A stretch of 64,000 nt of DNA from Flavobacteriales bacterium. GTDB taxonomy: Bacteria > Bacteroidota > Bacteroidia > NS11-12g > UBA9320. Under the pieces are notes generated by a model. The model saw only the letters and a program-made list of their open reading frames with translations. It did not search any database and was not told the origin of the DNA. The DNA is taken from the NCBI GenBank assembly GCA_020635395.1, contig JACJZV010000001.1, forward strand, positions 647,545 through 711,544. The letters are read 5' to 3'. The translations under genes were made by a program, and so were the position numbers. Shown in pieces: positions 1-58,615 of the stretch (positions within the stretch are counted from its first letter, which is position 1; every line of letters starts with the position of its first letter).

Positions 1-150
1 AAAAGTAACTCTATTTTTCAACTATTTCAAAAAAGTTGCAATTTTAATCTTCTTATTATCAGCGAGTTAATTGTGTTTTGTTTTTGAGGTAAAAATCTAA
101 AATAGCGTTGAGGGTAGTTGTGCAACAGCTACCCGTGTTAGCAGTAGCAA
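1..150. repeat. Cassette-associated repeat A1. It is about 98% identical to 44683..44832 and lies immediately 3' (minus-strand sense) of the beta-lactamase gene
   Basis: Direct comparison of 1..150 with 44683..44832 shows only about 3 mismatches. It carries the internal 10-bp motif GTTGTGCAAC (117..126) and the terminal motifs cagctaccc and gttagcRgtag. Confidence 0.8.
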
Positions 151-153
151 TTC

Positions 154-960
154 TCATCTATCAGTTAGTTTGAGGTCGTTAAGGATTAAATAAACAATGT
201 CTATTCGAGCATTTGCAAAGTCCTTATTGTTTAAGTCAGCCGATTGAATGCAGTTAGCGAAATAATAAACTTTGTCTTTATTCTCAAGATAGCCAACATA
301 CCACCCAATATCTTTATTGTCTTGTCCGCCCCAACCAGTTTTTGCTCTAATTACATAATTCAATGTGTCCTTTGCAATCATTATATTTTTAACAATATCC
401 ATTGAACGCTTTGAAAAGGGAAGTTGGTTGTCGTGAAGTCGTTTTAAAAAGTCAATTTGTTGTTTGGGAGAAACACGAAGTCCACCAGTAAGCCAAAACT
501 TGTCTATGCCACCTGAAGTGTCAACGTTTCCATAGTTTGCTTTATCAAGCCAGTATTTCATTTGTTGTCCGCCAACTCGTTTTGCAAGTTCTTGATAATA
601 CCAAACTGTAGAATTTTTGAAAGCGGTCTTTAAGTCGTGGTCGCTATTCCAGTTTGGGTTTTGTCGGGTTACACTGTCCCAAGGAATTACAAAGTTCTCG
701 TCTTTAATTACTCCTGTCTCAAGTCCGATAAGCGAGTTACAAATTTTATAAGTCGAGGCAGGTGAAAAAGTTTGCTCGAATTGGTCTTTGTTGTAAAAAA
801 CATATTTGTCGTCTTGTGGGTCGTAAAGAACGAAAGAACCGCCAACATTAAATTGGTCGTAATATTTTTTAAAGTCGTCACGAATTTCTACCACCTGCTT
901 TTGCTTACAAGCTGTTAGTCCGAGAACCATTAAAGTCAAAATTATTATTGTCTTTTTCAC
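154..960 (-). CDS. Class D (OXA-family) beta-lactamase, lipoprotein-type signal peptide
   Basis: The 268-aa product has a lipoprotein-like N-terminus (LTAC). It has the class D active-site motifs STYK (S-x-x-K), STV (S-x-V), YGN and KTGWG plus a downstream W. Likely GTG start. Confidence 0.8.
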   Translation of the reverse strand: MKKTIIILTLMVLGLTACKQKQVVEIRDDFKKYYDQFNVGGSFVLYDPQDDKYVFYNKDQFEQTFSPASTYKICNSLIGLETGVIKDENFVIPWDSVTRQNPNWNSDHDLKTAFKNSTVWYYQELAKRVGGQQMKYWLDKANYGNVDTSGGIDKFWLTGGLRVSPKQQIDFLKRLHDNQLPFSKRSMDIVKNIMIAKDTLNYVIRAKTGWGGQDNKDIGWYVGYLENKDKVYYFANCIQSADLNNKDFANARIDIVYLILNDLKLTDR

Positions 961-964
961 TGTC

Positions 965-1045
965 GTTATATTGTTACTGCTAACGTTTTGCAGCTACCCG
1001 AAGGGCGGGGCTTTCGGAGCACTAATCTGTCAAGCTACGATAATG
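965..1045. repeat. Cassette-associated repeat C1 (module family C)
   Basis: The modules ttacYgcYaacgKtt, gcagctaccc and gggcgggKtttcggagcac are shared with 45270..45340 and 42605..42660. On the minus strand it reads GGGTAGCTG..GTTAGCAGTAA about 15 bp before the beta-lactamase start. Confidence 0.6.
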
Positions 1046-1050
1046 TTTAT

Positions 1051-2844
1051 TTATTGTACAACTGTTCCAATTCCCACTTCAGCCCCCGCTTTTGGCAAGG
1101 TGCTGTTAGCACCCGTTTTTATTTCTGTTAATTTGTCAACCAGGTCTTTCGGGAACATATTTAGTTTTCTTAATGCTTTAAACAAGGTCTTAAAATTAAT
1201 AATTGTGCTTGTGAAAATATTATTATAAACTTCATTCAATATCGTTTTTCCTCGTCTGTTCAATAACCATTTCGGATATAATAAAATTGTCTCACCAACA
1301 AATGACACTTCAATTCTTTCTGTTTCAGTCGCTGGGTCGAAATCAGGAAAGTATTTTTTTAATTCAGGTTCTACTATAGATATTATAGCGTCTGCGACTT
1401 TCTGTAAAGTTTCAGCAGGAAGCGATTTTAATTTGTATTCTTCGCCTACTGATAGCTTCAAACCCTCAACAGCTGGATTCTTTTCCTTGTCAATTAGTGC
1501 GGCATAAACAAGGATTGGATCAGCTAAATAATTTTCAATACTATATCTGTCTATTTTATAGACACCGTCAGATACGGCATTACCAGTGTCTGCGTCAATT
1601 AGTCCTTGAACAATATTTACTAATCCTGATTCTTGTAGCTTATTTACCCAATTCTGAACAACATCTTTGCCGCCTGATTTGTCTTTCGTAGATGCTGGAA
1701 TAAATACTAATGGAATATTTGCATCGATTTGATTTTCTGTTGTAAGTTGATTGTAAGCAAATGAATAAAATGAAACATCATCGTTGTCTTCAACAAGAAA
1801 ATACTTAGTTCCTTCACCTACATAAACCAATCCTGCTGTCAAGAGTGAAACAGAATGATTTTTTGAAGGGGATTTTCTAATTCGAGGTTCAACTCGTGAC
1901 ATTTCATAAATTGAATTATTGGGTGCAAGAATAACTGTTGAAGGAGAGTGGGTGGTCATTATTACTTGGACTCCAAATTTGTCAACAAGAACATTTTTGA
2001 TAACATTTAAAAACTGTTGAGACATTGATGGGTGCAGATGAGCATCAGGTTCGTCAAGTAATAATAATTTTGGAAATACTTTTTTTTCTTGGGAGTTGTA
2101 CAAATAAAACACTAATGAAATAAGTACTTTTTCTCCTGAAGACAAGTCATTAAAATTTATTTCCTCGTTTAATATTTGATGAGTAAGTTTTAATTGAAAG
2201 CCATCTCGAATTCCATTGTTTGAAGGGTCATTAACATCAAATGGTAATTTTGATTCTTTAATAATTTCTTTTAAAACAACCCACGGTTTTTCCCCGATTG
2301 ATTTTTTTATATTTTCTTCCGTTTCGTGTTTAGCCTGCAGTTCTATTTCGGATAACCTGTAATTATAAAAAACTTCACCAATCTTTTGACTTAGTTGGCT
2401 TTCCTGCTCAATTAATATCTCAGGAAAATATTCGTAAAATTCTTCTTTCGTTATGACATTGAATTGTTTCCCTGTTTTCTTAATAATTTCTTGGCATGCC
2501 CAAAACATTTTAATTTGTCCTTCTTGGTTTCTTTGATAGTTGCCACCTTTAAAGTTATTATAGTAACCATCCATCTGTTGCTGAATGGTAGAAAGATTAA
2601 CGTGTCCCGTATTTTGTAGTTGCCACTCTCCCTTAAGAAAAGTAACCTCATCTGGTTTGATGGATTTCCCTGTTATAACAACTCTTTCGGTAGTTCCTTG
2701 TTTATTGATAATCGTATTATGAATTAAATCTAATAGTTGCGATTTACCAGTTCCATTAGGTCCAGTTATTACAACGAAGTCAGGAATGTCTGTCCAGTTA
2801 AAACTTGTAATTGATTTGTATTTTTTGTCGAATTTTATTTCCAT
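1051..2844 (-). CDS. OLD-family ATP-dependent endonuclease (ABC-type ATPase plus C-terminal Toprim). Candidate anti-phage defence gene
   Basis: Walker A GPNGTGKS, Walker B LLLLDEPDAHLHP, a C-terminal Toprim-like LVEDNDD and IDADTG, and single-gene organisation. The start is trimmed from 2901 to the internal Met (MEIKFDK) at 2844. Confidence 0.7.
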   Translation of the reverse strand: MEIKFDKKYKSITSFNWTDIPDFVVITGPNGTGKSQLLDLIHNTIINKQGTTERVVITGKSIKPDEVTFLKGEWQLQNTGHVNLSTIQQQMDGYYNNFKGGNYQRNQEGQIKMFWACQEIIKKTGKQFNVITKEEFYEYFPEILIEQESQLSQKIGEVFYNYRLSEIELQAKHETEENIKKSIGEKPWVVLKEIIKESKLPFDVNDPSNNGIRDGFQLKLTHQILNEEINFNDLSSGEKVLISLVFYLYNSQEKKVFPKLLLLDEPDAHLHPSMSQQFLNVIKNVLVDKFGVQVIMTTHSPSTVILAPNNSIYEMSRVEPRIRKSPSKNHSVSLLTAGLVYVGEGTKYFLVEDNDDVSFYSFAYNQLTTENQIDANIPLVFIPASTKDKSGGKDVVQNWVNKLQESGLVNIVQGLIDADTGNAVSDGVYKIDRYSIENYLADPILVYAALIDKEKNPAVEGLKLSVGEEYKLKSLPAETLQKVADAIISIVEPELKKYFPDFDPATETERIEVSFVGETILLYPKWLLNRRGKTILNEVYNNIFTSTIINFKTLFKALRKLNMFPKDLVDKLTEIKTGANSTLPKAGAEVGIGTVVQ

Positions 2845-2861
2845 AGTTGTCTGTCTTAAAA

Positions 2862-2930
2862 TGGCAGCTAACATCCCTATATGCCCAATACAATAGTCCA
2901 ATTGTGCATATTTCCATTATCTATGCAACA
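2862..2930 (-). promoter_or_regulatory. Conserved array-head element H1. It is about 80% identical to 51812..51880 and placed about -18 to -86 relative to the first gene of array 1
   Basis: The blocks tagataatggaaatatgc, attgtattgggcatata and ggatgtta are shared with H2 at the same distance from the start codon of the first gene of array 2. It contains GTTAGCTGCC. Confidence 0.5.
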
Positions 2931-9538: not shown

Positions 9539-11389
9539 TTATTGCAAGGCGTTTGGCTTAATGTAGTGATGATAATTTGCCACTTTTTGTTTTAGCATTT
9601 CTTCCAATTCTTTAGCCTTTTCGGGGTATTCATTCAGTAGATTTACCACACAATTTGGATCATTTTTTCTATCGTAAAGAAATAATGGTTTCGCATCGTT
9701 CATTAGCAAATTCCAATTACCCAAAGTGATGCTATACAACTGATTATCATAGTGACAAACAGGTCTTTCCGACATAGAAAGCATGTCGTTGCCAAGAAGG
9801 TTGTAGCCCACACTTCGGTTGTTCATGCTCAAAACAGTCGGAAAAATATCAATCTGCGAAACGGTTTGGTCTATGACCTTCGGGGTTAAAATTTTAGGGG
9901 CATAAATCAGCATGGGTATTTCATACTTCCCAGAAAAGGTGCGGAAAGCATGCACAGTGTTTTCGGCACTATGGTCGGCAGTAATAATAAAAATAGTTCG
10001 GTCAAACCACGGCTGTTTTTTGCATGAGTCAAGAAAACTTCGCAACGCAAAATCGGTATAGCCAATACTTTCATGAATATCGAGATTTCCTTTTGGAAAA
10101 GTGTTTTTGAATTGATCCGGAATGGGGTAGGGGTGATGACTGGTTAGCGTAAATATTCCGGCAATAAATGGTTCTTTTTGTACACTGATTTGGCGTTGAG
10201 CAAAATCAAACATGGCATGGTCATAGATACCCCAAAAGCCGTCAATGCCTGATTTGCCGCCGTCATATTCATCTTTTCCAAAATAAAAATCAAGACCGTT
10301 GGTTGTTAAAAAGGTTTGAAATCCCATCGAATTATTATCTGCTCCATGAAAAAAAAGTGAGGTGTAACCCTGCTTTTTTAATTCTTGTAAAATAGAGTTT
10401 GCCGGTTTTGCAGATAGTGGGCTGTTGATAAACGGCGAGTTACTGAGACGTGGAATTCCACAAAAAATAGCTGGAACAGCATCCATTGATTTTAATCCAT
10501 TTGCATAAGCATTTGTGAAACATACAGAGCTATCCATCAGTTTGTCAAGGTTCGGGGTGTAGCTTGTGATCCAGTTATGATTAAATGCAGTATATTCTTT
10601 ACCAAAACTCTCTAAAATAATTATTACGTAGTTATAATTAATTGGCAACGTGTCGATTAGGGTTTGTGAGAAATCATATTTTGGAGCAATGCCTTTGGCA
10701 AAGTCAGGAATATTAATGGGGTTTTGATAGGTCTCCAAAAGATAGAGCGGCGTATTCATAGCGAGCGATAAATAGGGTTCGGCAAGATATTGGCCAACAT
10801 TTGCGGATCGATACGGTTTTTTTTGAAAACCGCGAGCCAAACCAAAAAAGCACAAAATGAATATTGCTAAGTGCCAAAATTTTTGAGTTGCATTTGTAAC
10901 TTGGTTTATGCGGCGAAGAATTAAGACAAAAGTTACGGAAATAGCAACGAATAAGATAAAAAACGGCCAATAATCTTGTATATAAACCATTGGAGAAATA
11001 TTGTTGTCTCCCTTCAATTGCCAAAAAATATCGGCACTCAAATGGTTTTTAAGAATAGAAAAATACAAAGCATCAATAATGCCCAAAAGAGCTGTTGTTA
11101 TTCCAAAAACAGACAAAAGAAGAATTCGTATTCTCGGTTTTTTAAAAAAGAATGTCAGAAGAAAAACGCCACATGTAACATAGGTCGTTGGTATAATGTC
11201 GAGCCGAAACCCATAGAAAAAAGAGCTAAAAAGAGGGGAAACAGAAATGGGTTGAAATGCACTAAAATTGGCAAACAAAAAGATAGCCCGCAAACAAAAA
11301 AACAATCCCAAAACAAACAATATGCTGAGTAAAAATGCTTTGTTGGATTGCAAGAATTTTCTAACCAAAATAAAAATAAAATATGTCAA
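9539..11389 (-). CDS. LTA-synthase/sulfatase-family membrane protein (alkaline-phosphatase superfamily)
   Basis: Five N-terminal TM helices followed by a sulfatase-like extracytoplasmic domain. Confidence 0.6.
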   Translation of the reverse strand: MTYFIFILVRKFLQSNKAFLLSILFVLGLFFCLRAIFLFANFSAFQPISVSPLFSSFFYGFRLDIIPTTYVTCGVFLLTFFFKKPRIRILLLSVFGITTALLGIIDALYFSILKNHLSADIFWQLKGDNNISPMVYIQDYWPFFILFVAISVTFVLILRRINQVTNATQKFWHLAIFILCFFGLARGFQKKPYRSANVGQYLAEPYLSLAMNTPLYLLETYQNPINIPDFAKGIAPKYDFSQTLIDTLPINYNYVIIILESFGKEYTAFNHNWITSYTPNLDKLMDSSVCFTNAYANGLKSMDAVPAIFCGIPRLSNSPFINSPLSAKPANSILQELKKQGYTSLFFHGADNNSMGFQTFLTTNGLDFYFGKDEYDGGKSGIDGFWGIYDHAMFDFAQRQISVQKEPFIAGIFTLTSHHPYPIPDQFKNTFPKGNLDIHESIGYTDFALRSFLDSCKKQPWFDRTIFIITADHSAENTVHAFRTFSGKYEIPMLIYAPKILTPKVIDQTVSQIDIFPTVLSMNNRSVGYNLLGNDMLSMSERPVCHYDNQLYSITLGNWNLLMNDAKPLFLYDRKNDPNCVVNLLNEYPEKAKELEEMLKQKVANYHHYIKPNALQ

Positions 11390-16799: not shown

Positions 16800-16866
16800 A
16801 TTAAATTAAATACTGAATATGTAGTAATTTTGGGGCAAAGATAGATATTTAGCTATAAATACCAAT

Positions 16867-32895: not shown

Positions 32896-33017
32896 AAAAA
32901 CAGTGATAAAACAAATGTCAAAAGTAAAGAAATGGGGAGCAAATAACTTTTTTTAAAAATTCATCCAACCATTTTATCCTTAGCTTCGTATTGGTTTTTC
33001 AAAAGAGAATAAAAAAT

Positions 33018-41851: not shown

Positions 41852-41977
41852 ATTATTGTATTTTAAAATTAACTATTTACACCAATTTGCCATTCGCAAT
41901 ATAGTTTTATTAAGTCACTCGATTTCAAATTTTTTTTGGTAGATTTTAAGATAACTGTTCTGCTCAGGTTGCAAGCT

Positions 41978-42020
41978 CCTCCTTATGGGGAGAGCCGCCT
42001 ACTCGTTTGGCAGCTACCCT
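41978..42020. repeat. Module W/Y copy (cctccttatggggagagccgcctactcg..cagctaccc) at the distal end of array 2
   Basis: The same 25-bp W module terminates the B elements at 46264, 47782, 48583 and 49305. Confidence 0.6.
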
Positions 42021-42601
42021 TCTTTTATCATTTTATAGATATTCGATTGATTAAACTGTTCTCTCCATTTCTCAATTCTATCAGTCTCACTTTCAATTTT
42101 TTGAATCTGAAATGATTCCACAAAACCAATTTTTAACCGAATTTCTTTTCCACCTTCATCTAATGGTATTTGAACAAAACAATCATGCTCATCACAAGTA
42201 ATTTTTGACTTAATTAAAGCTGAATCAATTTTGTTTGACAAGAATTCTTTTCCAAATTCCATTTGATAGGATAGCACTTTTAACGAATCTATTGTATTGT
42301 TACTGGTGTATATTGAATCTAATGATTGACGAGACAATTTGTGTTCTCCTAATCGTTTGTATATCTCGTATCTTAACAGGTTTGCCTTTTCATTTACTTG
42401 CATAACACAAAGGCCACAGGTGCAATAACCACACGTTTCAGCTTCCGTTATTTGCTTCAATGCTTTTTCGTTTTTTCCCTTAGTAACGTTTTTCTCTGCT
42501 TTATCAAGTAACATAAATGAATTCTGACCATAGCTCAACTGATAAAATACTATGAGTGTCACTATGGCGAAGGATCTGAGATATTTTACTTCTATTTTCA
42601 T
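42014..42601 (-). CDS. Hypothetical secreted protein (cassette-like array gene)
   Basis: Signal peptide. No recognised domain. Confidence 0.4.
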   Translation of the reverse strand: MKIEVKYLRSFAIVTLIVFYQLSYGQNSFMLLDKAEKNVTKGKNEKALKQITEAETCGYCTCGLCVMQVNEKANLLRYEIYKRLGEHKLSRQSLDSIYTSNNTIDSLKVLSYQMEFGKEFLSNKIDSALIKSKITCDEHDCFVQIPLDEGGKEIRLKIGFVESFQIQKIESETDRIEKWREQFNQSNIYKMIKEG

Positions 42602-42604
42602 TTT

Positions 42605-42660
42605 TTTAATTTCTAAGACGTTTTAGGGCTTTGTGTTCAGGCAGTTTCGCGGGCCATTGG
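42605..42660. repeat. Module C copy (cgttttagggctttgtgttcaggcagtttcgcggg)
   Basis: About 75% identical to 45293..45328 and 985..1022. Confidence 0.5.
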
Positions 42661-42697
42661 GGTGATTTAACCAGTGAACCACGGTAGGTGTTGTGAG

Positions 42698-43438
42698 TTA
42701 TTTTAACTTCTTAAATACATAATCCCAGTCTTTATAAGTCCAATCATTTTCACCGATAAATTCATGGTCCGCACATTCATAAATTTCATTTACATTGAAA
42801 ATCTGATTATTTTCTCTTGCTTCATCCCAAAGGTTCATTAGCCCAGATTTATCCTTTATTTTTTCAAACTTATTTTTAACATTTTTAAAACAAACTAAAT
42901 CTCCAAACTCTGAATTTCCACATGGATGATAATTTGAGTATTTACAGGATATACAGGTTTTAATTTCATAATTTTCAGGGAGCGTCTTTTGCATATCAAT
43001 CATAAGATATTCAAAATTATACATATTCCTTGCAAATAAATTCTCTCCAAAAACAGTCTTAAAAGTTGCTTCTTTTATAACCAACTCAACACCGTAATCT
43101 TTTTTATTTTCAATACTTTTTTCCAATTTTAAAATCAGTTCGCCATTAAAATTATTCTTTAAGTGGCCAATGATTATAGGTATCTCAATTTCTAATTCAA
43201 AATTTGTTAACTCATTGTAAGAATTAAATTCAAAATTACCCTTAGTTTCTTTTGTTTCTAATGACTCAAACTCACGTCCTTCAAAGATTGTATTCCTTAA
43301 TTCTAATCTTAAATTGCTTCCATGCGAAATAACCTCAGATTTGAGCGAACCGAATTTGTCAGTATATTTTACGAGATATTTTTTTAAACACATGCTCTTA
43401 CTCTTTATTTTTCTGGCATTAACTATACTGTAAAACAC
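42698..43438 (-). CDS. Hypothetical protein, AT-rich (cassette-like array gene)
   Basis: ORF only. Confidence 0.4.
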   Translation of the reverse strand: MFYSIVNARKIKSKSMCLKKYLVKYTDKFGSLKSEVISHGSNLRLELRNTIFEGREFESLETKETKGNFEFNSYNELTNFELEIEIPIIIGHLKNNFNGELILKLEKSIENKKDYGVELVIKEATFKTVFGENLFARNMYNFEYLMIDMQKTLPENYEIKTCISCKYSNYHPCGNSEFGDLVCFKNVKNKFEKIKDKSGLMNLWDEARENNQIFNVNEIYECADHEFIGENDWTYKDWDYVFKKLK

Positions 43439-43689
43439 GGAGAAGCCAAATCATCTAAACGTACTTTATTTAAAATTCTGTACGAATTTCTCCTCTTCAG
43501 TGCATGGTGTAAATATAGTTCGAAAGATAAGAAATTGATTGTCAATTTGATATAAATTATTTCCGTCTGGAACAGGTGCATCTAAATCGGGGAAGCCACT
43601 ATTCGGCGACGTCGCCAACATTGCTATTATTATCACAAAAGGTCAAGTTAGCACGTGTCCTCCAGTGGTGGAAACAGCCGTATTCTATA

Positions 43690-43775
43690 CCCCAATCCCG
43701 ATAGCTATCGGGATTGGGGTGAGAGGTACACTCTCATCATTTATGGGGAGAGCCGCCTACTTGATTATGTGCTGT
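43690..43775. repeat. Composite repeat made of a perfect 30-bp palindrome V (ccccaatcccgatagctatcgggattgggg), then a truncated B 3' half, then the W module
   Basis: The palindrome was read directly. The gaggtacactctcatcatttatggggagagccgcctacttg part matches the B-element 3' end. Confidence 0.7.
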
Positions 43776-43782
43776 TATTTTT

Positions 43783-44511
43783 TTATTCATATGGTTTCCA
43801 GTTTTTGTCTTTGGGTTCCTTGTAATTTGCAGGTCTTACATTTCGCTTCATTTCTTCATCACAAGCTCCGAACTCAATAAAGTTTTTTTGTGCCTGTCTT
43901 AACGAAATTGTGTTTGCTCCACCTTCATAATATGGGTCGTCAAGTTGGATTGGGTCATCTTCCCAAAAGCATACAGGGCAAATATCATAAGTTCCATTTG
44001 GTTTCTCCGTAAACGTTTTATGTCCACAACAAGGACAAGCAAATTTTGAATTAACTGTCAATATTAGTAATGCCTTTTCCAATGCATCTTTGTCAAAACC
44101 GATTGATGGTCTTGTTGCAACCCAGCGTTCTTTTATATACTCTGGCAATGCGTTTATTGATTGGTCATCATCAATAATAACATAGTTCTGTCCCTCTCCT
44201 TTTTTTTCAACCCATTCTTTAATTTCGGTTCCTCTGTCTAATAATTGACTTATTTCTGTTTTGTTATTTAGTTTTGATATTGTTTCAAAATTCAATCCTC
44301 TTAATCTAAAAATCTCTTTCCATTTAGTTTCGTCATAATTTATTCTATGAGTTGTTGTCAAAACTATCGAAGCATTTGTCCTTTTGTGAAGGATTAATAA
44401 GTTTTCAAGTGCTTTTTTATTTAGTTTCATAAATCCGTCAGAATATATTTCTGCCTGTCGCCAAGTAGGTGTCGTTTCCAAAACTCCGTCTATGTCTAAA
44501 AGTATTGTCAT
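43783..44511 (-). CDS. HAD-like hydrolase domain fused to a cysteine-rich CPCC domain
   Basis: N-terminal DxD HAD motif (LLDIDGVL) and a C-terminal CPCCGHKTF...CPVCFWEDD cysteine-rich CPCC-type module. Confidence 0.5.
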   Translation of the reverse strand: MTILLDIDGVLETTPTWRQAEIYSDGFMKLNKKALENLLILHKRTNASIVLTTTHRINYDETKWKEIFRLRGLNFETISKLNNKTEISQLLDRGTEIKEWVEKKGEGQNYVIIDDDQSINALPEYIKERWVATRPSIGFDKDALEKALLILTVNSKFACPCCGHKTFTEKPNGTYDICPVCFWEDDPIQLDDPYYEGGANTISLRQAQKNFIEFGACDEEMKRNVRPANYKEPKDKNWKPYE

Positions 44512-44682
44512 TCTGTTTTGTGTCGGTCTTTATAATAGCACATAACTTTTTGCCGCTTGCCGCAGTGGGGGATTTCGAAGCACTTCACTTTCAACCAAGC
44601 ACAAATGTTGATAGAATCACAGCACTTGATTTAACCACGTCAACCCCCATTGCGGCAAACGACTGTGCCTGTTGCACAACTC
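44512..44682. repeat. ORF-less structured spacer element with a 12-bp inverted repeat (ccgcaGtggggg / cccccaTtgcgg) and module Z (atttcgaagcac)
   Basis: Read directly. No credible ORF. It lies between repeat A2 and the CPCC gene. Confidence 0.5.
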
Positions 44683-44832
44683 AAAAGTAACTCTATTTTT
44701 CAACTATTTCAAAAAAGTTGCAATTTTAATCTTCTTATTACCAGCGAGTTAATTGTGTTTTGTTTTTGAGGTAAAAATCTAAAATAGCGTTGAGGGTAGT
44801 TGTGCAACAGCTACCCGTGTTAGCGGTAGTGT
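44683..44832. repeat. Cassette-associated repeat A2, about 98% identical to 1..150
   Basis: Direct comparison. It is bounded by the inverted 10-mers GTTGCACAAC (44671..44680) and GTTGTGCAAC (44799..44808). Confidence 0.85.
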
Positions 44833-45267
44833 TTACGTCATGTGTTTAAGGAAAAGTGTAATGGTTTCATATGTCAATTCGTTATCCTTGATTATATAGT
44901 TGTCAAACCAGTCGTTGTTACTTAGTGTTTGTGCTACCAACCAAGATTCTTTGCCAAGATATAAAAATCGTTTGCCGCCAACTTGTATTAACCATGAACC
45001 AAAATCCTTCTCGTGATAAGATTCTTTTGTAATCACCTTGTCTGTTAGTCGTAATAAGCAAAAGTCGAAAAGAAATTTATTCCAATTGCTTGAAACTTTT
45101 CTTTCAATGTCAAACGCATAACTTATAGCCTTGTCAATCGTATTATCAGTTGCATTGTCAACCAATTCTGCTTTTCGCCCAAATTTGTCAGTAAGAGTAA
45201 CTTTAAAAACTCCGTTCGAAATTTCGTCAATTTTAGTTGTCCAACCTGGTAGTGATTTTGTGTTCAT
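44833..45267 (-). CDS. Hypothetical protein (cassette-like array gene)
   Basis: ORF only. Confidence 0.4.
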   Translation of the reverse strand: MNTKSLPGWTTKIDEISNGVFKVTLTDKFGRKAELVDNATDNTIDKAISYAFDIERKVSSNWNKFLFDFCLLRLTDKVITKESYHEKDFGSWLIQVGGKRFLYLGKESWLVAQTLSNNDWFDNYIIKDNELTYETITLFLKHMT

Positions 45268-45269
45268 AG

Positions 45270-45400
45270 TGTCTGTCTAACATTACCGCCAACGGTTTCG
45301 GGCTTTGCGTTCGGGCGGGTTTCGGAGCACAAAGTTTCAATTTATTACTAAAGTTTATTAGAAGCACAAAGCTCCATCCCGATAGCTATCGGGATTGCAC
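45270..45400. repeat. Composite repeat made of module C (ttaccgccaacggtttcgggctttgcgttcgggcgggtttcggagcac) plus palindrome V copy (atcccgatagctatcgggatt)
   Basis: Related to 965..1045 and 43690..43719. Confidence 0.6.
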
Positions 45401-45440
45401 GTCAACCCGCATGACGCAACCCGTGTTATAGCCAGTTTTT

Positions 45441-45797
45441 CTATTCATTGGTCAACATTACTATTGTCTTATTTTTTGTCTCTGCACATTTATTTTCTGT
45501 CGGCATATTAGTTTTTATTTTCAATATGTCGTCATTTCTTTTAATGCTAAAGTTCATAACATTATAGATTGCGTCATTTAAGTAATATTCAAATAATTTG
45601 GTCGTGTCATTTCCATAATTTGCAAAAAATTCAAATCTGTAATTGTCAATCTCAGTCTGATAAACGCTATAAAAAATGTGTTCATTAGGTTCGTTTGAAA
45701 TTGTTCTCGTCACAATGAGGTTGTTCTGTTCAAAATAGGAACAGCCAACTATGAATAGTAAAAATATCAATGCATATTTTGGTATTTTTTTATTCAT
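45441..45797 (-). CDS. Hypothetical lipoprotein (cassette-like array gene)
   Basis: Signal peptide with the lipobox LFIVGCS. Confidence 0.4.
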   Translation of the reverse strand: MNKKIPKYALIFLLFIVGCSYFEQNNLIVTRTISNEPNEHIFYSVYQTEIDNYRFEFFANYGNDTTKLFEYYLNDAIYNVMNFSIKRNDDILKIKTNMPTENKCAETKNKTIVMLTNE

Positions 45798-46047
45798 ATA
45801 CTTTCGCTCCTTTAAAAATGTCTACAAATGTTGACCAGTCTGGTTTGTCCGCATTTACATTTAGTTTCATATTGTCGTAATAGCCTTGAATGTCTTCAGT
45901 AAACGCACCCAACGCTTCCAGAAAATCGGTCAAAGTTTTGTTTTCCCAATTTTCAGGATTGGCTAAAAAGTCTTTGCGTAATAAGCCAAGAAACTTAATG
46001 AAATTTTGTCTGTCCGTTACTTTAAAGTCGTTAAGTGTGTCGTTCAT
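45790..46047 (-). CDS. Hypothetical small protein (85 aa). It overlaps the next gene by 8 bp with no intervening repeat
   Basis: ORF only. It forms a two-gene unit with 45441..45797. Confidence 0.35.
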   Translation of the reverse strand: MNDTLNDFKVTDRQNFIKFLGLLRKDFLANPENWENKTLTDFLEALGAFTEDIQGYYDNMKLNVNADKPDWSTFVDIFKGAKVYE

Positions 46048-46165
46048 AAAATTGGCTATAACGTGCCAGCACTAAATGTTGTGCCACTTTTTTCACTATT
46101 TGTTGTCAGTATAAATATACAATTTTATTTCTAATTCCCTGTCTGTCAGGCATAACATTTAGTGC

Positions 46166-46292
46166 ACGTGTGTGCCGCCAATGGCAAACACCCTCCAAGT
46201 TTAGTTGAAAGGAGAGTGATAACCAATAGTTATGTTGGATTAGCTAATGAGGTGTACACTCCTCATTTATGGGGAGTTCCGCCTACTCGATT
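46166..46292. repeat. B-family structured repeat copy B1
   Basis: gtgtgccgccaatggcaaacaccctcc..aggagagtgataaccaatagttatgttggattagctaatgaggtgtacactcctcatttatggggag..cgcctactcg. Internal hairpins are ataac/gttat, ttagctaa and aatgagg/cctcatt. Confidence 0.8.
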
Positions 46293-46298
46293 ATGGGC

Positions 46299-47513
46299 TT
46301 ACAATTCAATTTTCCAAAGACCATTTTTGCCTCCGACAATTACGCTTCCCTTAGGATCGATTGCAAGGTAAAAAGCACTTTCAATGCCAGCAAATAAGTC
46401 CTTTGACCTAAAAGTATAATATTCCCCATTACTTGTCCGAATACCGAAGTCTGGATAACCCATCCAACTTGTTGTATACCAAATATTAGATTTTTCATCA
46501 ATAACTATAGAATTTGGTAATGGAATTACCGTTCCACAGTCTGGTTTTAATTTTTCATTGAAAGATTCAGATTGAATATCCAACCCTAATCCAATAAATG
46601 ATTTACTAAACCCAGGGTTTTGACCATAATGTGTACTATTATATAGATTAATACAAGGGATATTTATAACAGAATTTTTTTCGAAAACACTTCCAAATTG
46701 CTGAATACTGTCAAATGTGAAAGTTTTCCACTCATTATTTTTAATTCTAAGTAATTCAGCTTGTGAGGCTGCATTTATTCCATTACCTTTAGTTGCATAG
46801 AATCTGACCCAAACGGAGTTATCACTGGTTATAGTTATTCCATCAAGTCTTTTACCTACTGGTAGTCCATTATTTTCTGTGAATGTTAAAACATCGGAAG
46901 CTGAAATTAAACTCAATCCATTTTCCTCCCAGTTGGATCCAGGCTGAGGCTGGGTCGTATGACCTACCCAAACATTGTCAGATTGGTCAACTGCAACATA
47001 TTTCGTATGGTTATTTAGGAGACCTTCATTTTTTGAAAAGAGTTGCATTGAATTCCAGTCATATCTGCACAAACCCTTGGGAGTAGCCATCCATAATCGT
47101 CCTTTGCTGTCTTCATCAACTCCTGTAATAGTGTCTGAAGGTAATCCATCTTCTTTGCCAATATGTAACCATTTTTGTTGGGCAAAATCGAAATAATCTG
47201 CACCTTTATTCGTTCCAACCAGAATTGCCCCTGATACCTTGGAAACTGACAGATGATTAATTCGCCCGTTTGCTAAATTATGGGTTAAGTTTTCTTTTTT
47301 TTCAAAAATAGAGAAGTCGTTAAAGTTTTTACTATTCCAGCAGCTATCCCAAGTAAATTCGGACACGACAACTAGAGGTTTAGATGGTTCCTCTTTTTCT
47401 TTACAAGATAATGCCAAAATAGAAAAAGAGATAACTAAGAATGTAATTGTTTTATTCATATTTCTGTTTTTAGTTCTGACTAACGCAAAATTATGTTTCT
47501 GATTACCAAGCAA
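46299..47513 (-). CDS. Lipoprotein with two-component-regulator-propeller (Reg_prop-like) beta-propeller repeats
   Basis: Lipoprotein signal and repeated ..DG..W.GT..GL..YD blades. Confidence 0.45.
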   Translation of the reverse strand: MLGNQKHNFALVRTKNRNMNKTITFLVISFSILALSCKEKEEPSKPLVVVSEFTWDSCWNSKNFNDFSIFEKKENLTHNLANGRINHLSVSKVSGAILVGTNKGADYFDFAQQKWLHIGKEDGLPSDTITGVDEDSKGRLWMATPKGLCRYDWNSMQLFSKNEGLLNNHTKYVAVDQSDNVWVGHTTQPQPGSNWEENGLSLISASDVLTFTENNGLPVGKRLDGITITSDNSVWVRFYATKGNGINAASQAELLRIKNNEWKTFTFDSIQQFGSVFEKNSVINIPCINLYNSTHYGQNPGFSKSFIGLGLDIQSESFNEKLKPDCGTVIPLPNSIVIDEKSNIWYTTSWMGYPDFGIRTSNGEYYTFRSKDLFAGIESAFYLAIDPKGSVIVGGKNGLWKIEL

Positions 47514-47682
47514 TCACAAAGTATCATTTTTTACCTCTTTTTCAGAGGTTTTTTCGACTTCGTTGGCCTCCAAAATTAATAAAGAAAATTCAGAAATGAG
47601 AAATTGAATTAGACTCATTTCGGAATTTTTATTTTTGGATTGCCCATAACGGTGAGTGTACGCGTAGTTTGCACGTTTAGGG

Positions 47683-47816
47683 CTACACCGTGTGTGTGTG
47701 CCGCCAATGGCAAACACCCTCCAGAAAGGAGAGTGATAACCAATAGTTATGTTGGATTAGCTAATGAGGTGTACACTCCTCATTTATGGGGAGAGTCGCC
47801 TACTCGTTTGTGTGTA
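47683..47816. repeat. B-family repeat copy B2. It has an 11-bp deletion relative to B1 and is flanked by the imperfect inverted repeat ctacaccgtgtg / tgtgtgtag
   Basis: Direct comparison. Its 3' flank encodes the last 4 codons of the upstream ORF. Confidence 0.8.
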
Positions 47817-48414
47817 GTTTTTGTTCTTTATATACTTTCGTTATTTCGCTTTTTAATTCATTGTACCTTTTAGGTTCGGTCAGTTTTTTCAGTGAATTAA
47901 TTGTGATTGAGCTCTGACTTCTTTCATAGTTGTCAAGTCGATATGTTGGTAGAACATAAAAATCCCATTGCTCCATTTTTAAAGGGTCAATTGTTTTTTG
48001 GTCTTTGTGTTTTAAATGACAGAACACATAAAGGTCAGCGTGTCTTTTGGGTTCTCCACGTTGCATATTTGTTTCTGCATCCCAATATCTTGCAGGTTTA
48101 ATTGAAAATGAAATAGTCGAAAAGTTCTTTTGATTCCAACTTTGAATATAAGCGGCAGATTTGACTTCTATTTTTATTCCGTCGATAGTTGTCAAGTCAT
48201 ATGCATCCCATTCATCTCTTAAATTTTCAGGATTTAGTCCAACTGCTGTCCCGACGATAAACTCTGCAAATCTTCCGCGAGTTGCATTGCTCAAAATGTC
48301 AGAAACGCTCCAACGCCAAAAGTCCAATAGGTTAAAATTTGTTTCCTTACCATTGTCGGTAAGGGTTTCATTTCCGTTTTTGGGGCTTGCTTTTATTTCT
48401 TTGAGTTCGTTCAT
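47800..48414 (-). CDS. Hypothetical protein with a PD-(D/E)xK-like nuclease motif
   Basis: D..(x)n..IEVKS arrangement (DAYDLTTIDGIKIEVKSAAY). Weak. Confidence 0.35.
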   Translation of the reverse strand: MNELKEIKASPKNGNETLTDNGKETNFNLLDFWRWSVSDILSNATRGRFAEFIVGTAVGLNPENLRDEWDAYDLTTIDGIKIEVKSAAYIQSWNQKNFSTISFSIKPARYWDAETNMQRGEPKRHADLYVFCHLKHKDQKTIDPLKMEQWDFYVLPTYRLDNYERSQSSITINSLKKLTEPKRYNELKSEITKVYKEQKLHTNE

Positions 48415-48482
48415 TTCTAATTACACACGACGGTTCGTATATGGTGTCGTAGCATCCCGCAGGGTGCTATGTATTATATACC

Positions 48483-48618
48483 ATGTGTGTGCCGCAAATG
48501 GCAAACACTCTCCAAATTTAGCTGAAAGGAGGGTGATAACCAATAGTTATATCGGATTAGTTGATGAGGTGCACACTCCTCATTCGTGGCGAGAGCCGCC
48601 TAATGGATTGTGTGTATT
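48483..48618. repeat. B-family repeat copy B3, the most diverged
   Basis: About 85% identical to B1. Confidence 0.7.
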
Positions 48619-49047
48619 ATCTGTTAAAATTCTGTTTTTTGGAATCAGCTGATGCATTACGAGTAAAAATAATACACCTTTAGTAAAACCATTTGGAATA
48701 AACTTTACAAACGAGTCGTAAATATCAAATTGAAATCCTAATCCAGCTCCTATTATTAAAGAAATTATTATGGAAGAAATTAAGCAAACAATGCCATAAA
48801 TGCTACCAAATATTAAAGCTTTTGATAGCGATATTCCGAGATTATCTTTTGAAATATTCCTTACTAACAAATGGGTTACGAAAGCGGTAATTATTAAAAA
48901 TAAAAACTCTAAAACCATCTCATAGATGAAAAAATAGATATTGAATATTCTAGTCATTTCAAATTCGGTAAATATTAATTTTCTAATCAAATCTATTCCA
49001 ATTGAGATTAATCCAAAAAACAATATTGCTCTAAAAACCTTTGTCAT
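48580..49047 (-). CDS. Small integral membrane protein (4 TM). Its last 11 codons are encoded by the B3/W repeat
   Basis: Hydrophobic profile. The C-terminus THNPLGGSRHE is read through the repeat. Confidence 0.4.
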   Translation of the reverse strand: MTKVFRAILFFGLISIGIDLIRKLIFTEFEMTRIFNIYFFIYEMVLEFLFLIITAFVTHLLVRNISKDNLGISLSKALIFGSIYGIVCLISSIIISLIIGAGLGFQFDIYDSFVKFIPNGFTKGVLFLLVMHQLIPKNRILTDNTHNPLGGSRHE

Positions 49048-49211
49048 TCTTTACAGTTTATCTTAGTGTTATGCATACGCTGCGATTACGCATAACGGTA
49101 TAGGGTAAGAAACGTAGGGCATTTCGAAGCAATTTCCTGTTCACCGAAACGGAACTTGCTAAGAGCCCAAAACTTGCGGAAACCACTGCCCGCCCTATGT
49201 TTTATACCCAT

Positions 49212-49345
49212 TGTGCGTGCCGCCAATGGTAAACGCCCTCCAAATTTAGTTGAAAGGAAAGTGATAACCAATAGTTATGTTGGAATAGCTAAATAGGTAC
49301 ACTCTCCTCATTTATGGGGAGAGCCGCCTACTCGATTAGGAGCAT
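49212..49345. repeat. B-family repeat copy B4
   Basis: About 90% identical to B1. Confidence 0.8.
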
Positions 49346-49350
49346 CATAA

Positions 49351-49854
49351 TTATGAAATCCAAATCATTTCATTGCTTACAACTCGCCATTTTCCGAGGC
49401 GTTTTTTTAATTCAACAACATTTCCAGACGAGCTTAAGTTACCTTCGTAATATCCACAATAAACACTGGCTTTGTTTCCAGACACAATTACTTTTGAAAT
49501 ATTGAATGAAAGAAAATCAATTTCACTTTTTTCTTCGTCTGTCATATTATTGAACATTGAAATGTCCTTTACTTTGGGAGAATTCCTTTTTAGCTTATCC
49601 AATACAAATGGTAAGGATTGATTGAGAGAATCGTCTAAACTTAGAAAATAGTAGGTGGCTTTTTCTTTGGTTGCAGATGCGTTTTCTTTAAATAATGCTT
49701 TGAATGCAGCAACTTCAATTTTAACCAATGTCGTCTTTGGGATATTGTTATTCTGCAAACCCTCTTTTATATTTCCTGTCTTTTGGCTGAATACTGTGCC
49801 AGAAAGAAGTAAGAGAAGTGTCGGAAACACAAGGACTTTGAGTATTAAATTCAT
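49351..49854 (-). CDS. Hypothetical secreted protein (cassette-like array gene)
   Basis: Signal peptide. Confidence 0.4.
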   Translation of the reverse strand: MNLILKVLVFPTLLLLLSGTVFSQKTGNIKEGLQNNNIPKTTLVKIEVAAFKALFKENASATKEKATYYFLSLDDSLNQSLPFVLDKLKRNSPKVKDISMFNNMTDEEKSEIDFLSFNISKVIVSGNKASVYCGYYEGNLSSSGNVVELKKRLGKWRVVSNEMIWIS

Positions 49855-50063
49855 TTGATTGCCATTTAAATTATTTCTGTCGCATTCTAGAAAGTCAAAT
49901 TCTATCTGGTGTTGGTGTAATTGCTCCTAACGTATTCGTGTATGAGTAGTGGCGGATTTTAACCCACTAAACTATCAGATAACATCGACCTTTGATTTAT
50001 AATTTTATGTTTCTATTAAGCACCAAACCCGCTATTGCAAATGTGCTGTTAGCGGTAGTTTTT

Positions 50064-51143
50064 CTATTCTGTAAGTTCATAAACAGATATTGTTTTGTTG
50101 TCTGCCGTTAAGAAACAACCTGTCCCAACGCTGTATTCGTTTACTTTCAAAATTTCGTCTTTAAAAGCGATTTGTCCATCCGATGAAATTACCGAAAAGC
50201 CACCTTCGTCAGAAACTGTGATGAACGAATTCATTGCTCTATTGAAATACATTTTCGAACTAAGGATATTTTTGTCAACAATCTGAATTTTCTTACCTAT
50301 CTCAACATTGTCCCCGCTGATTTTGAGAAAATGAATTTCACAAGGAGAGTCTGCTGTTGAATTTTCATCTCCTTCGGTAAATGGATTATACGCAATAGCA
50401 ATAGTATCATTGTCAATCCAACATGTCGCTCTGTTTTCATGTTCCCAACCACCTATTCTCAAATCTGATATTCTATTACTTGTGATAAAATTTTCAATAT
50501 CATAGACATTATAGCAATCGTATGAACCCCAAGCCCAACCTGCACTCAAAAATTTCTTCTGATTAGGCGAAATAAAAAGTTTGCCAAAAAAATAGTCGTA
50601 TGGTCTCGGCCAAGGTAATTTGTTGTCCTCAGAATGTTTTTTATAAAAATCAATGTGTCTTTCTTCCGCCCCTTCTTCAATCAAGGATTTTGAAGCAGTC
50701 AGGATTTGTCTGGTGTCAAGATTCATGATTTGAATATGATTCCATGCTTCACCAAAAATTAAATGGGGCACTCTTTCTTGATTTTTATAAAGTACTATTG
50801 GATAAGTTGAAATGTCAGCGTGATAGTCTTCTCTCCACAAGTGCAAGGCATGATACTTGTTGGGATAATGAACAAAACCATGTCTTTTGAAGTCATTAAC
50901 TACAACTACAATTTCGTCCATTGTGTAAATTGAAGTCTTTGCTGTTAAGTCAAAACCTCCGTCTGAATATCCAAAATTGCTTTTTACTGAAAATAAATGC
51001 TTTCCCTTTTTGTCGTCCAAATTAAACCGAATGACATTACCAGAACTCATCAACATAACAACTTCATTTGACTTTGATAAAGTCGCAGTCATAATAGTTT
51101 CGTCAGTGTCAAAAGTGATGTCGTAAATTTTATTTGTTTTCAT
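50064..51143 (-). CDS. Hypothetical protein, beta-rich and possibly beta-propeller-like (cassette-like array gene)
   Basis: ORF only. Confidence 0.4.
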   Translation of the reverse strand: MKTNKIYDITFDTDETIMTATLSKSNEVVMLMSSGNVIRFNLDDKKGKHLFSVKSNFGYSDGGFDLTAKTSIYTMDEIVVVVNDFKRHGFVHYPNKYHALHLWREDYHADISTYPIVLYKNQERVPHLIFGEAWNHIQIMNLDTRQILTASKSLIEEGAEERHIDFYKKHSEDNKLPWPRPYDYFFGKLFISPNQKKFLSAGWAWGSYDCYNVYDIENFITSNRISDLRIGGWEHENRATCWIDNDTIAIAYNPFTEGDENSTADSPCEIHFLKISGDNVEIGKKIQIVDKNILSSKMYFNRAMNSFITVSDEGGFSVISSDGQIAFKDEILKVNEYSVGTGCFLTADNKTISVYELTE

Positions 51144-51317
51144 TCTAATCGTCTATTCGCTTGGTAGCTTTAAAATTACCGCTAACGGTTAGTATATGAA
51201 AAGTAGGCGATTTAGAAGCTCTAATTTTTCGGTTAAACACAAATTTTAATGCGAGCCATAACCTATGAATTTATCGCTGTTTCGCCTATTTTTTATATAC
51301 AGTGTTGTAGTGCGTTT

Positions 51318-51803
51318 TTATTCATTATTAGTTGTCGTAAACACTTGATAGAAGTATGACAGGTTATCAGGCTCTCCATTTGCAAATCGTTTAAAAGCTT
51401 TGGCAATCGGGTCGCAAACAGTTCCGTTTGGTAGTTTAATTACAATTGGCATCATATTTACTCCTTCTGGAAGGTTCGCGTCTTCTTGCTTAATCCACCG
51501 TCCATTTGCATTCTCAATCATTACTTGTCCAGAATAGCAACCAGCAACAAAAATTGTCTCAGCAAAATCGTCAACGTTCCATTCTTTACTAAAGTTGTCC
51601 AGAAATTGGTCAACAAAATTCAGCGAGTCAACTGAATAATCTAACTCAATTCCTTCGTTTTCTTTAACAGCTCCACTAAAAAACTCACTCAACCCTTTTC
51701 CATTTTCAGGGTTTGGTTCTAATTGTAAGTTTAGTCCGCGGTTTGGAAAGACTTGTTTTGGCTTTTCTTCTTTCTTTCCGAAAAGGTTTTTAAATATGCT
51801 CAT
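51318..51803 (-). CDS. Hypothetical protein. It is the first gene of array 2
   Basis: ORF only. Confidence 0.4.
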   Translation of the reverse strand: MSIFKNLFGKKEEKPKQVFPNRGLNLQLEPNPENGKGLSEFFSGAVKENEGIELDYSVDSLNFVDQFLDNFSKEWNVDDFAETIFVAGCYSGQVMIENANGRWIKQEDANLPEGVNMMPIVIKLPNGTVCDPIAKAFKRFANGEPDNLSYFYQVFTTTNNE

Positions 51804-51811
51804 CTGTTTTT

Positions 51812-51880
51812 TTTAATGCCCTATAACATCCGTATATGCCCAATACAATGTTCCTATTACGCATATTTCCATTATCTACG
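51812..51880 (-). promoter_or_regulatory. Conserved array-head element H2, about 80% identical to 2862..2930
   Basis: See H1. Same spacing from the first start codon. Confidence 0.5.
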
Positions 51881-52101
51881 AAACCAAAACAGGGTTTGAA
51901 ATTTAATGTATCCGTTTTCATTTTTTTTGGCTTCGTTCCATTCAGTCAAATATAGAAACTTTTTTTAGAAATTATCCAAAATGCCAATAGCACCTTGCGG
52001 TTTGTAACAAGGCCAAAGAAAAATGCCATTCTGTCACCATTTTAGGTTAAAAAGTGGTTGGCAAAGTAGTTGATATTGCCCAAACATTAATTCATAATCG
52101 G

Positions 52102-57044: not shown

Positions 57045-57225
57045 AATTAAGGTTTTAAAACAGTAAGAACAATGGTTTTAACGATATGCAGTAGGTTATG
57101 TTACAGCCACTTGCAATTTTTGTTAGAAAACATGACAAAATACTTTGCCCGAAAGCCTCATTTTTTTGAAGCTCGGAATAATAATATTGCCAAATTCTTA
57201 CCTTTGCCCAAAATTTATTGGTTAA

Positions 57226-58534: not shown

Positions 58535-58545
58535 TTGTGTGAACA

Positions 58546-58615
58546 CGCCTGTAGGAACACGCCTCGAGGCGTGTTCACACAGGCGTGTCCCTACAAGGCG
58601 TGTTCCCACCAATAC
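58546..58615. repeat. GC-rich cluster of five 10-bp GAACACGCCT motifs (2 direct, 3 inverted), including a perfect 22-bp palindrome
   Basis: tgtgaacacgcct gtag gaacacgcctcgaggcgtgttc acac aggcgtgtcc ctaca aggcgtgttcc. Confidence 0.6.

Follow-up and report, generated by a model that had tools for sequence, protein, structure and literature searches.

A class D β-lactamase gene likely carried as an integron-type cassette in a chromosomal array of a Flavobacteriales bacterium

Class 1 integrons carry class D β-lactamase genes such as those for OXA-2, OXA-10, and OXA-46 as promoterless single-gene cassettes that end in a 3′ imperfect palindrome and have ...AAC/GTT... cores, and sedentary chromosomal integrons, like the clusters of attC sites lacking integrases (CALINs) recognized by IntegronFinder, form long co-oriented arrays of small open reading frames (ORFs), mostly of unknown function, separated by related attC sites. 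Here we describe a class D β-lactamase gene (bla) that shares features with both kinds of element. It lies in a 64,000-nucleotide stretch of DNA from a Flavobacteriales bacterium (GenBank assembly GCA_020635395.1, contig JACJZV010000001.1, forward-strand positions 647,545 to 711,544), which we call the window and whose own numbering we use throughout. The gene has the promoterless, single-gene organization, the 3′ imperfect palindrome, and the cores of the class 1 integron OXA cassettes, but its product scores less than a third of the cut-offs of their families (171.5 of 590 for OXA-2 and 157.8 of 580 for OXA-10), its host belongs to the Bacteroidota, its attC sites are of another family (~130 nt, with the R″ core TGCTAAC), and no IntI1, plasmid, or transposon accompanies it. 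In its long co-oriented array, its small, mostly uncharacterized ORFs, its related attC sites, and its lack of an adjacent integrase, the locus resembles sedentary integrons and CALINs, as it does in its cargo, with defense cassettes in the arrays of the window and toxin-antitoxin cassettes in a related locus (L088; L numbers are our labels for loci). Unlike CALINs, however, it has an attI-like head, which in related loci adjoins Xer-like recombinases without the IntI insertion. We consider it likely that bla encodes an exported class D enzyme carried on a gene cassette, the second in a recombinase-less chromosomal array of at least 17, and that the enzyme tolerates tyrosine at position 71.

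The cassette boundaries were read from the two ends of the gene (Table 1). Inverted GTTAGC and GCTAAC boxes flank bla and are the cores of two attC-like sites. Along the coding strand, the end of the ORF for an upstream ATPase overlaps the first of these sites, which is followed by G↓TTAGCAGTAACAAT (arrows mark junctions), 23 nt, bla, its stop codon, and directly thereafter a conserved box, GAATTGCTACTGCTAAC. In reverse complement this post-stop box matches the 5′ end of the cassette itself, a pairing that fits the R″ and R′ of a circularized cassette. Homology among bla loci runs from GTTAG through the box (GAATTGCTnCTGCTAAC), and the attC interior past the box varies between hosts. Of the 87 loci listed, some of which are repeat assemblies of the same place, about 30 have kept the box after bla. 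The surroundings of bla are different in each genome, and the GTT core marks the breakpoints: upstream lies the ATPase gene in the window, a 202-amino-acid (aa) ORF in L007, a recombinase gene in L018, and non-array DNA in L001, and downstream lie TspO, an Rce1-like gene, a 212-aa ORF, or a 528-aa ORF. Judged by this comparison of loci, the bla gene is a promoterless integron-type gene cassette of ~960 bp, or 1,121 bp with the insertion in its attC that is described below.

The attC-like sites have a conserved structure of their own. In 15 aligned sites of ~130 nt, AAC and GTT were invariant (15/15), the R″-R′ distance was 120 to 122 nt, and the stem next to the cores covaried, as in the pairs GCACCTACCC/GGGTAGCTGC, CAAGCATGTAA/TTACATGCTTG, and GGCGTTTGGC/GCCAAGCGCC. 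Stem positions were paired in 72.5% of cells, versus 64.6% in shuffles (none of 500 reached the observed value) and 23 to 43% when the partner was slid, and 8 of the 10 L-stem pairs showed changes on both sides; cognate arms paired at −12.5 kcal/mol, versus −6.2 kcal/mol for noncognate arms. From the aligned sites and a hand-specified structure we built a covariance model, R1, whose matches with an E value of <0.01 in the window and its extension were confined to the gene strand of the arrays, the weaker ones elsewhere having E values of ≥0.04. When 84 bla-containing loci (0.9 Mb) were searched on both strands, all 61 R1 matches fell on the bla strand; neighboring sites were often separated by a single ORF, L040, with 11, had the most, and in 19 of the 84 loci one lay directly behind bla. 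In many loci an R1-detected attC ends ~18 nt before the bla start. RNAalifold predicted no structure from a MAFFT alignment of the 15 sites because the stems are out of register in that alignment, a home-made scan of the window for AAC...GTT duplexes gave hundreds of weak matches and one clear site, and neither Rfam nor tRNA scans of the window gave a match.

The attC of the window's bla copy runs past the window edge, and we therefore read it from the flanking part of the same contig (L091/L094); the window itself corresponds to positions 131407 to 195406 of JAWKNP010000003.1 in the Flavobacteriales metagenome-assembled genome (MAG) GCA_041391645.1, in which the MurA of the window has an exact match. 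Beyond the R″ core follow ACGGGT, an insertion of ~153 bp resembling a miniature inverted-repeat transposable element (MITE), the hairpin core, and the R′ core GTTGGGC, the last two lying 144 nt past position 1. Folding of the core yields −28.7 kcal/mol (z = −4.1), and R1 scores it at 92.3 bits. A Bacteroidales MAG carries a bla gene 89% identical to that of the window, followed by an attC with ~87% identity to this one, and thus ORF and attC travelled together in that pair. The terminal inverted repeats of the MITE are AGCTGTTGCACAACT...AGTTGTGAAACAGGC, and a duplicated ACACGGGT flanks it. At least three copies, 97 to 100% identical, were found, at positions 1 to 130 and 44664 to 44822 of the window and 10791 to 10950 and 12350 to 12499 of L094; the two besides that in the bla attC (window 44664 to 44822 and L094 12350 to 12499) are 97 to 99% identical. 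The copies have terminal inverted repeats AGCTGTTGCACAACT...AGTTGTGMAACAGGC, two of them show a target duplication of 7 to 8 bp, and all of them sit within attC-like sites.

Array A, to which the cassette belongs, starts at about position 2930, where it adjoins ssb, trx, and murA, and runs leftward through the ATPase cassette to bla, the second of at least 17 co-oriented ORFs; beyond the window lie at least 15 small ones, including genes for TspO, DUF1877, TPR, and cNMP-binding proteins. Because its best match is the PARIS AriA-AriB system, the first cassette is probably a single-gene anti-phage defense cassette. Most ORFs of the second array in the window, array B, have no Pfam match, and this array abuts grpE/dnaJ. 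At the head of either array stands a 70-nt sequence, 83% identical between the two, that ends in ...GGAT↓GTTA. These heads agree with the regions immediately downstream of recombinases in L018 and L093 in the form of the junction and in having a TATGGAA(A)ATAT motif. The heads look like orphan attI-like sites that adjoin housekeeping genes (ssb/murA and grpE/dnaJ). If the analogy with integrons holds, the promoterless bla would be expressed by read-through from the array head, and its folded attC would be excised or inserted at G↓TT by a tyrosine recombinase acting in trans.

The protein itself is a class D β-lactamase by profile, fold, and catalytic residues. It scored 272.9 bits with the NCBIfam model bla_class_D_main (NF012161; cut-off 250, E = 1.8e-81), covering model positions 2 to 235 of 236, whereas all named OXA family models stayed under their cut-offs (the best, OXA-1089-like, at 246.6 versus 580, and OXA-48-like at 193.8 versus 580). 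Transpeptidase (penicillin-binding) is its sole Pfam domain. The best solved structure in a PDB sequence search had an E value of 1.5e-70, and the top matches were the class D enzymes 6nhs and 7k3m/8ep6, followed by the OXA-48 group. An AlphaFold2 model built on 31 relatives (pLDDT 86.2, pTM 0.84) gave 7k3m, OXA-48, and 6nhs as its top Foldseek matches (TMt 0.91 to 0.93, root mean square deviation 1.7 to 2.0 Å), and the best 50 Foldseek matches listed were all class D β-lactamases (TMt 0.90 to 0.94). The protein thus shares its fold (TM ~0.9), its catalytic set, and its approximate size with OXA-48/OXA-181, with Nostoc YbxI (6nhs), and with Chitinophaga pinensis Cpin_0907 (7k3m/8ep6), but it is only 38% identical to OXA-181 in a pairwise alignment and 45% and 40% identical to 6nhs and 7k3m, respectively, in structural alignments.

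All of the OXA-181 residues S70, K73, W105, S118, V120, Y144-G-N, W157, L158, K208-T-G, and R250 are kept in the window protein, as is every family-invariant position; within the family, the motif I serine and lysine, S117, and T118 are invariant, and V119 is at least 90% conserved. The ratio of nonsynonymous to synonymous substitution rates (dN/dS) against 10 relatives was 0.11 to 0.18, a statistic that is averaged over the whole lineage and that points to purifying selection. A pseudogene was rejected on this ground. Fold, catalytic residues, and low dN/dS together describe a constrained, intact class D enzyme, and the ORF probably encodes an active OXA-type β-lactamase. By analogy with other class D enzymes, Ser69 would be acylated by the β-lactam ring and then deacylated by water activated by carbamylated Lys72 as the general base, with Lys72 presumably sitting in a hydrophobic pocket that is lined by Val119, Trp156, Leu157, and the aromatic residue at position 71. 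The protein differs from the OXA-48 family in that this residue is Tyr in place of Phe72, in its lipoprotein-type signal, and in its β5-β6 loop, which after KTG reads WGGQDNKD, unrelated to the YSTRIEPK of OXA-181. With this loop unrelated, the similarity to OXA-48 does not imply a carbapenemase spectrum.

A single ORF spans exactly the interval assigned to bla in Table 1. Motif I is read as tttataagtcga on the plus strand, the reverse complement of which, TCG ACT TAT AAA, encodes S69-T70-Y71-K72. Relatives start M-(T-T)-M-K-Q-T..LTAC, and both of these ATG codons are changed in the window gene, to ATA and GTG. The GTG at position 960 aligns with the ATG of relatives, and the N terminus restored from it, MKKTIIILTLMVLGLTAC, has a lipoprotein-type L-T-A-C box that is kept in most relatives in an alignment of the close family. 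The GenBank gene call instead yields 258 aa from an internal ATG at position 930 and so loses the signal peptide; an exact database look-up of the 268-aa form found no match because the GenBank call begins at this internal ATG. We take the GTG to be the real start codon, and the β-lactamase is probably exported as a lipoprotein.

Several points weigh against the reading of bla as an exported enzyme on a functioning cassette. With the ancestral ATG codons mutated, translation depends on the GTG start, and the alternative start chosen in GenBank would give an unexported protein. We identified no promoter for the bla cassette and found no characterized member of the clade to which the enzyme belongs. 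Neither a motif scan nor tblastn (E ≥ 1) revealed a tyrosine recombinase in the 64-kb window or in 10 kb beyond it, so that, within the available sequence, arrays A and B are attC clusters without an integrase, and the MITE in the bla attC may immobilize the window copy. The attC sites also depart from the canonical RYYYAAC/GTTRRRY form, their R″ being TGCTAAC and their spacers asymmetric (1 nt versus 5 nt), and they were defined by our own alignment and the R1 model rather than by a published attC detector. The loss of both ATG starts, the lack of an own promoter in second position of the array, and an attC split by a MITE with no recombinase nearby are also what would be expected of a silent or decaying cassette, that is, one intact in sequence but not expressed or immobile in this genome and conferring no phenotype. 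We regard this explanation as improbable: the ORF is uninterrupted, its invariant positions are kept under a low (though lineage-averaged) dN/dS, GTG is a usable start codon, and bla lies close to the array head, a position that favors expression in classical integrons.

The same flanks could in principle belong to an ordinary intrinsic chromosomal gene, their inverted repeats being terminators or intergenic repeats of a generic kind and not recombination sites. Distant relatives (60 to 73% identity), many of them from Ignavibacteria and Saprospiraceae, do lack the box and have the look of resident genes, a few carrying a decayed box, and the attC upstream of bla folds poorly alone (z = +0.76 under DNA folding). 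However, cassette-borne bla genes have different neighbors on both sides in different orders, with the breakpoints at the core, and the repeats are strand specific, spaced one ORF apart, and covarying, which makes an intrinsic gene very unlikely. Least likely of all, to the point of being nearly dismissed, is a BlaR1/MecR1-type sensor domain or an acylation-only penicillin-binding protein in place of a hydrolase: such sensors have a homologous penicillin-binding fold (the BlaR1 structure 1nrf is among the PDB matches, E = 8e-47), the BlaR1 model NF000326 is the third-best NCBIfam match, and Tyr in motif I (S-T-Y-K) is typical of them, but the score of 219 bits is far under the BlaR1 cut-off of 400, the 268-aa protein has a signal peptide and no sensor, transmembrane, or M56 protease module, its motif II is S-T-V, as in hydrolases, rather than the S-x-N of the sensors, its close and otherwise little-changed relatives mostly have STFK, and no blaI- or mecI-like repressor gene adjoins bla. 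A reading made from the sequence alone had singled out a repeat-flanked context unlike that of intrinsic chromosomal class D genes and had named best matches to BlaR1/MecR1, or a missing active-site serine or lysine, as grounds for abandoning the assignment. The best matches are of another kind, both residues are present, and the context, a cassette in an attC-type array, turned out to be the most informative part.

The tyrosine in motif I is a common, recurrent, and apparently tolerated allele that does not distinguish this enzyme and looks neutral. Among the 120 closest clusters (71 to 89% identity), 94 have STFK and 19 have STYK, and in a diverse set of 150 representatives, drawn from clusters at 50% identity, the counts are 125 for STFK, 5 for STYK, and 4 for SSFK. 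The F/Y state, a one-base toggle between TTY and TAY, switches at least 12 times on a neighbor-joining tree of the close family. Searching the literature for class D enzymes with STYK brought up nothing but class A tables and unrelated matches.

GenBank already lists the same protein under the name “class D β-lactamase” (MCB9261288.1 and MEZ4845189.1), and the protein belongs to a clade without an OXA name. Members of this clade occur in at least 175 species-level genomes, almost all of them MAGs, from Bacteroidota and Ignavibacteria; the best relative is 89% identical. The sequence-only reading had proposed a likely functional class D homologue with STYK that might be a novel OXA-type variant. 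Its ORF and the motifs STYK, STV, YGN, and KTG were confirmed, and the profile score, catalytic residues, fold, and selection described above agree with function, activity being probable on those grounds. The suggestion of novelty held only in part, in that no named OXA family fits; the protein is on record, its clade is large, and STYK is frequent. OXA-347 is 39% identical and the nearest plasmid-borne gene 44% identical, and carriage by a plasmid or phage was rejected. The cassette occurs in unrelated arrays: carriers include MAGs of Flavobacteriales, Chitinophagales, Saprospiraceae, Bacteroidales (including Rikenellaceae and Bacteroidaceae), and Cytophagales, in at least five orders of Bacteroidota, and cassette-borne bla genes, at ~74% identity or more, are spread across orders.

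Recombinases were found beside the same attC family in other loci. In L018, bla is directly preceded, in the same orientation, by a gene for a 455-aa tyrosine recombinase, with the junction ...TTTAAAC↓GTTAGCAGCAAC; the family of this recombinase is very large in Bacteroidota. One member, in Catalinimonas niigatensis (L088, CP119422), is followed by an array with two HigB/HTH toxin-antitoxin cassettes and ..CTAAC/GTTAG.. sites, and in that locus an IS110-family transposase gene (positions 15624 to 17142) lies between the R″ (GCAGCTAAC) and R′ (GTTAGCC) of one attC-like site. A metagenome scan with the recombinase profile, for which generic Xer/IntI peptide patterns were used, listed 80 loci with relatives, which were mixed and mostly short, 8 of them being informative; among the 80, R1 sites lay downstream of the recombinase gene and co-oriented with it in L101, L106, L111, L112, and L115 and upstream and divergent in L121 and L133, the recombinase gene of L133 having an in-frame stop. 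The linked recombinases scored 191 to 230 bits with the integron-integrase model TIGR02249 (cut-off 265), which was matched in two pieces, and they have 19 residues where VchIntIA (2a3v) has 62; the IntI-specific insertion is thus absent from them. Their N termini bear up to three modules (none in some, one to three in many) with an R-W-x5-W-x-(V/I)-P motif, and the region between recombinase gene and first cassette ends in ...AT↓GTTA or ...AA↓GTTA.

Complete integrons are reported to be very rare in Bacteroidetes genomes (PMC9024848), and our literature search, the coverage of which was limited so that novelty is not proven, found these arrays described nowhere and integron-like systems of Bacteroidota covered only in general statements. 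We tentatively propose, as a possibility that we would not yet call probable, a Bacteroidota-wide integron lineage with its own ~130-nt attC family (R″ TGCTAAC), attI-like heads, and Xer-like recombinases without the IntI insertion, of which bla would be one cassette. If such a lineage exists, its members would not be recognized as complete integrons by detectors that depend on the IntI-specific domain, and the coexistence of resident bla genes (60 to 73% identity and no attC) with cassette forms (~74% or more) would open cassette birth to direct study.

The enzyme itself, an unnamed and automatically annotated environmental class D β-lactamase, adds little. What matters is that a class D bla gene appears to circulate among environmental and gut-associated members of at least five Bacteroidota orders as a ready-made cassette, which is the form in which mobile integrons capture resistance genes. 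Resident and cassette forms of bla in one phylum, with the IntI hallmark absent from the linked recombinases, offer a system in which to ask how cassettes (an ORF plus its attC) are made, and the same system bears on whether attC recombination needs the IntI-specific domain.

Table 1. Positions of the β-lactamase gene, its cassette, and associated features (window numbering unless a locus is named)
Feature	Position	Strand	Basis or remark
Class D β-lactamase ORF	154..960	-	268 aa, GTG start at 960
Motif I, S69-T-Y-K72 (nucleophile Ser and general-base Lys; Tyr for the usual Phe)	745..756	-	Direct read; aligns to OXA-181 S70-T-F-K73
Motif II, S117-T-V119 (SxV)	604..612	-	Translation and OXA-181 alignment
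Motif Y143-G-N145	526..534	-	Translation, family conservation, OXA-181 alignment
W156 codon	493..495	-	Translation
Motif K207-T-G209	334..342	-	Translation, family conservation, OXA-181 alignment
Predicted lipoprotein signal peptide, MKKTIIILTLMVLGLTA↓C, residues 1-18	907..960	-	Read from translation
R′ core GTTAGCA; putative crossover G↓TT (984/983), 5′ end of bla cassette	978..984	-	Homology among bla loci begins there
Conserved box GAATTGCTACTGCTAAC immediately behind the bla stop codon; R″ core TGCTAAC at 143-137	137..153	-	Comparison of bla loci
MITE-like insertion, ~153 bp, inside bla attC, cut by window edge	1..130	-	Contig read further (L091/L094)
attC-like site of upstream ATPase cassette; 5′ arm overlaps end of that ORF	978..1111	-	R1 100.2 bits, site in training set
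First cassette of array A: fused ABC-type ATPase and DUF4435 protein, PARIS AriA-AriB-like	1051..2844	-	Pfam AAA_15, AAA_21, DUF4435; PADLOC AriAB 109 bits
attI-like head of array A, end ...GGGAT↓GTTAGC	2860..2929	-	83% identical to array B head
Array B: ~12 co-oriented small ORFs with attC-like sites between them	41955..51884	-	attI-like head 51815-51884
R1 sites in array B	44540-44669, 45287-45431, 49091-49219, 49925-50054, 51180-51310	-	Covariance model R1
Second MITE copy, inside an array B attC	44664..44822	-	98.7% identity
~154-nt “type 2” repeats of array B	46150-46303, 47667-47820, 48467-48620, 49195-49348; partial 43723-43791, 41983-42028		
Recombinases linked to the attC family	L018 4478-5843; L095 2237-3934; L101, L106, L111, L112, L121, L133		

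In several cassettes of array B, a repeat of ~154 nt (62 to 79% identity) lies between the stop codon of the ORF and the attC core. These repeats were considered as a second attC family and rejected, as they form no long hairpin and only small local ones (z = −1.8 and −2.4). The loops of two inter-ORF elements contain a perfect 22-nt palindrome, ATCCCGATAGCTATCGGGAT (positions 43693 to 43714 and 45376 to 45397), and a similar sequence, GTCCCGATAAAATCGGGAT, lies upstream of bla in L001. Elsewhere in the window, a 706-aa ORF on the plus strand (positions 32991 to 35111) is built of ~249-nt repeats with a W-x-F-G-D-G motif, which suggests PKD-like or similar surface domains. Finally, an inverted repeat of 31 + 31 nt without a spacer, 84% complementary (positions 58535 to 58596), lies downstream of the ORF at positions 57072 to 58472 and is probably a terminator.

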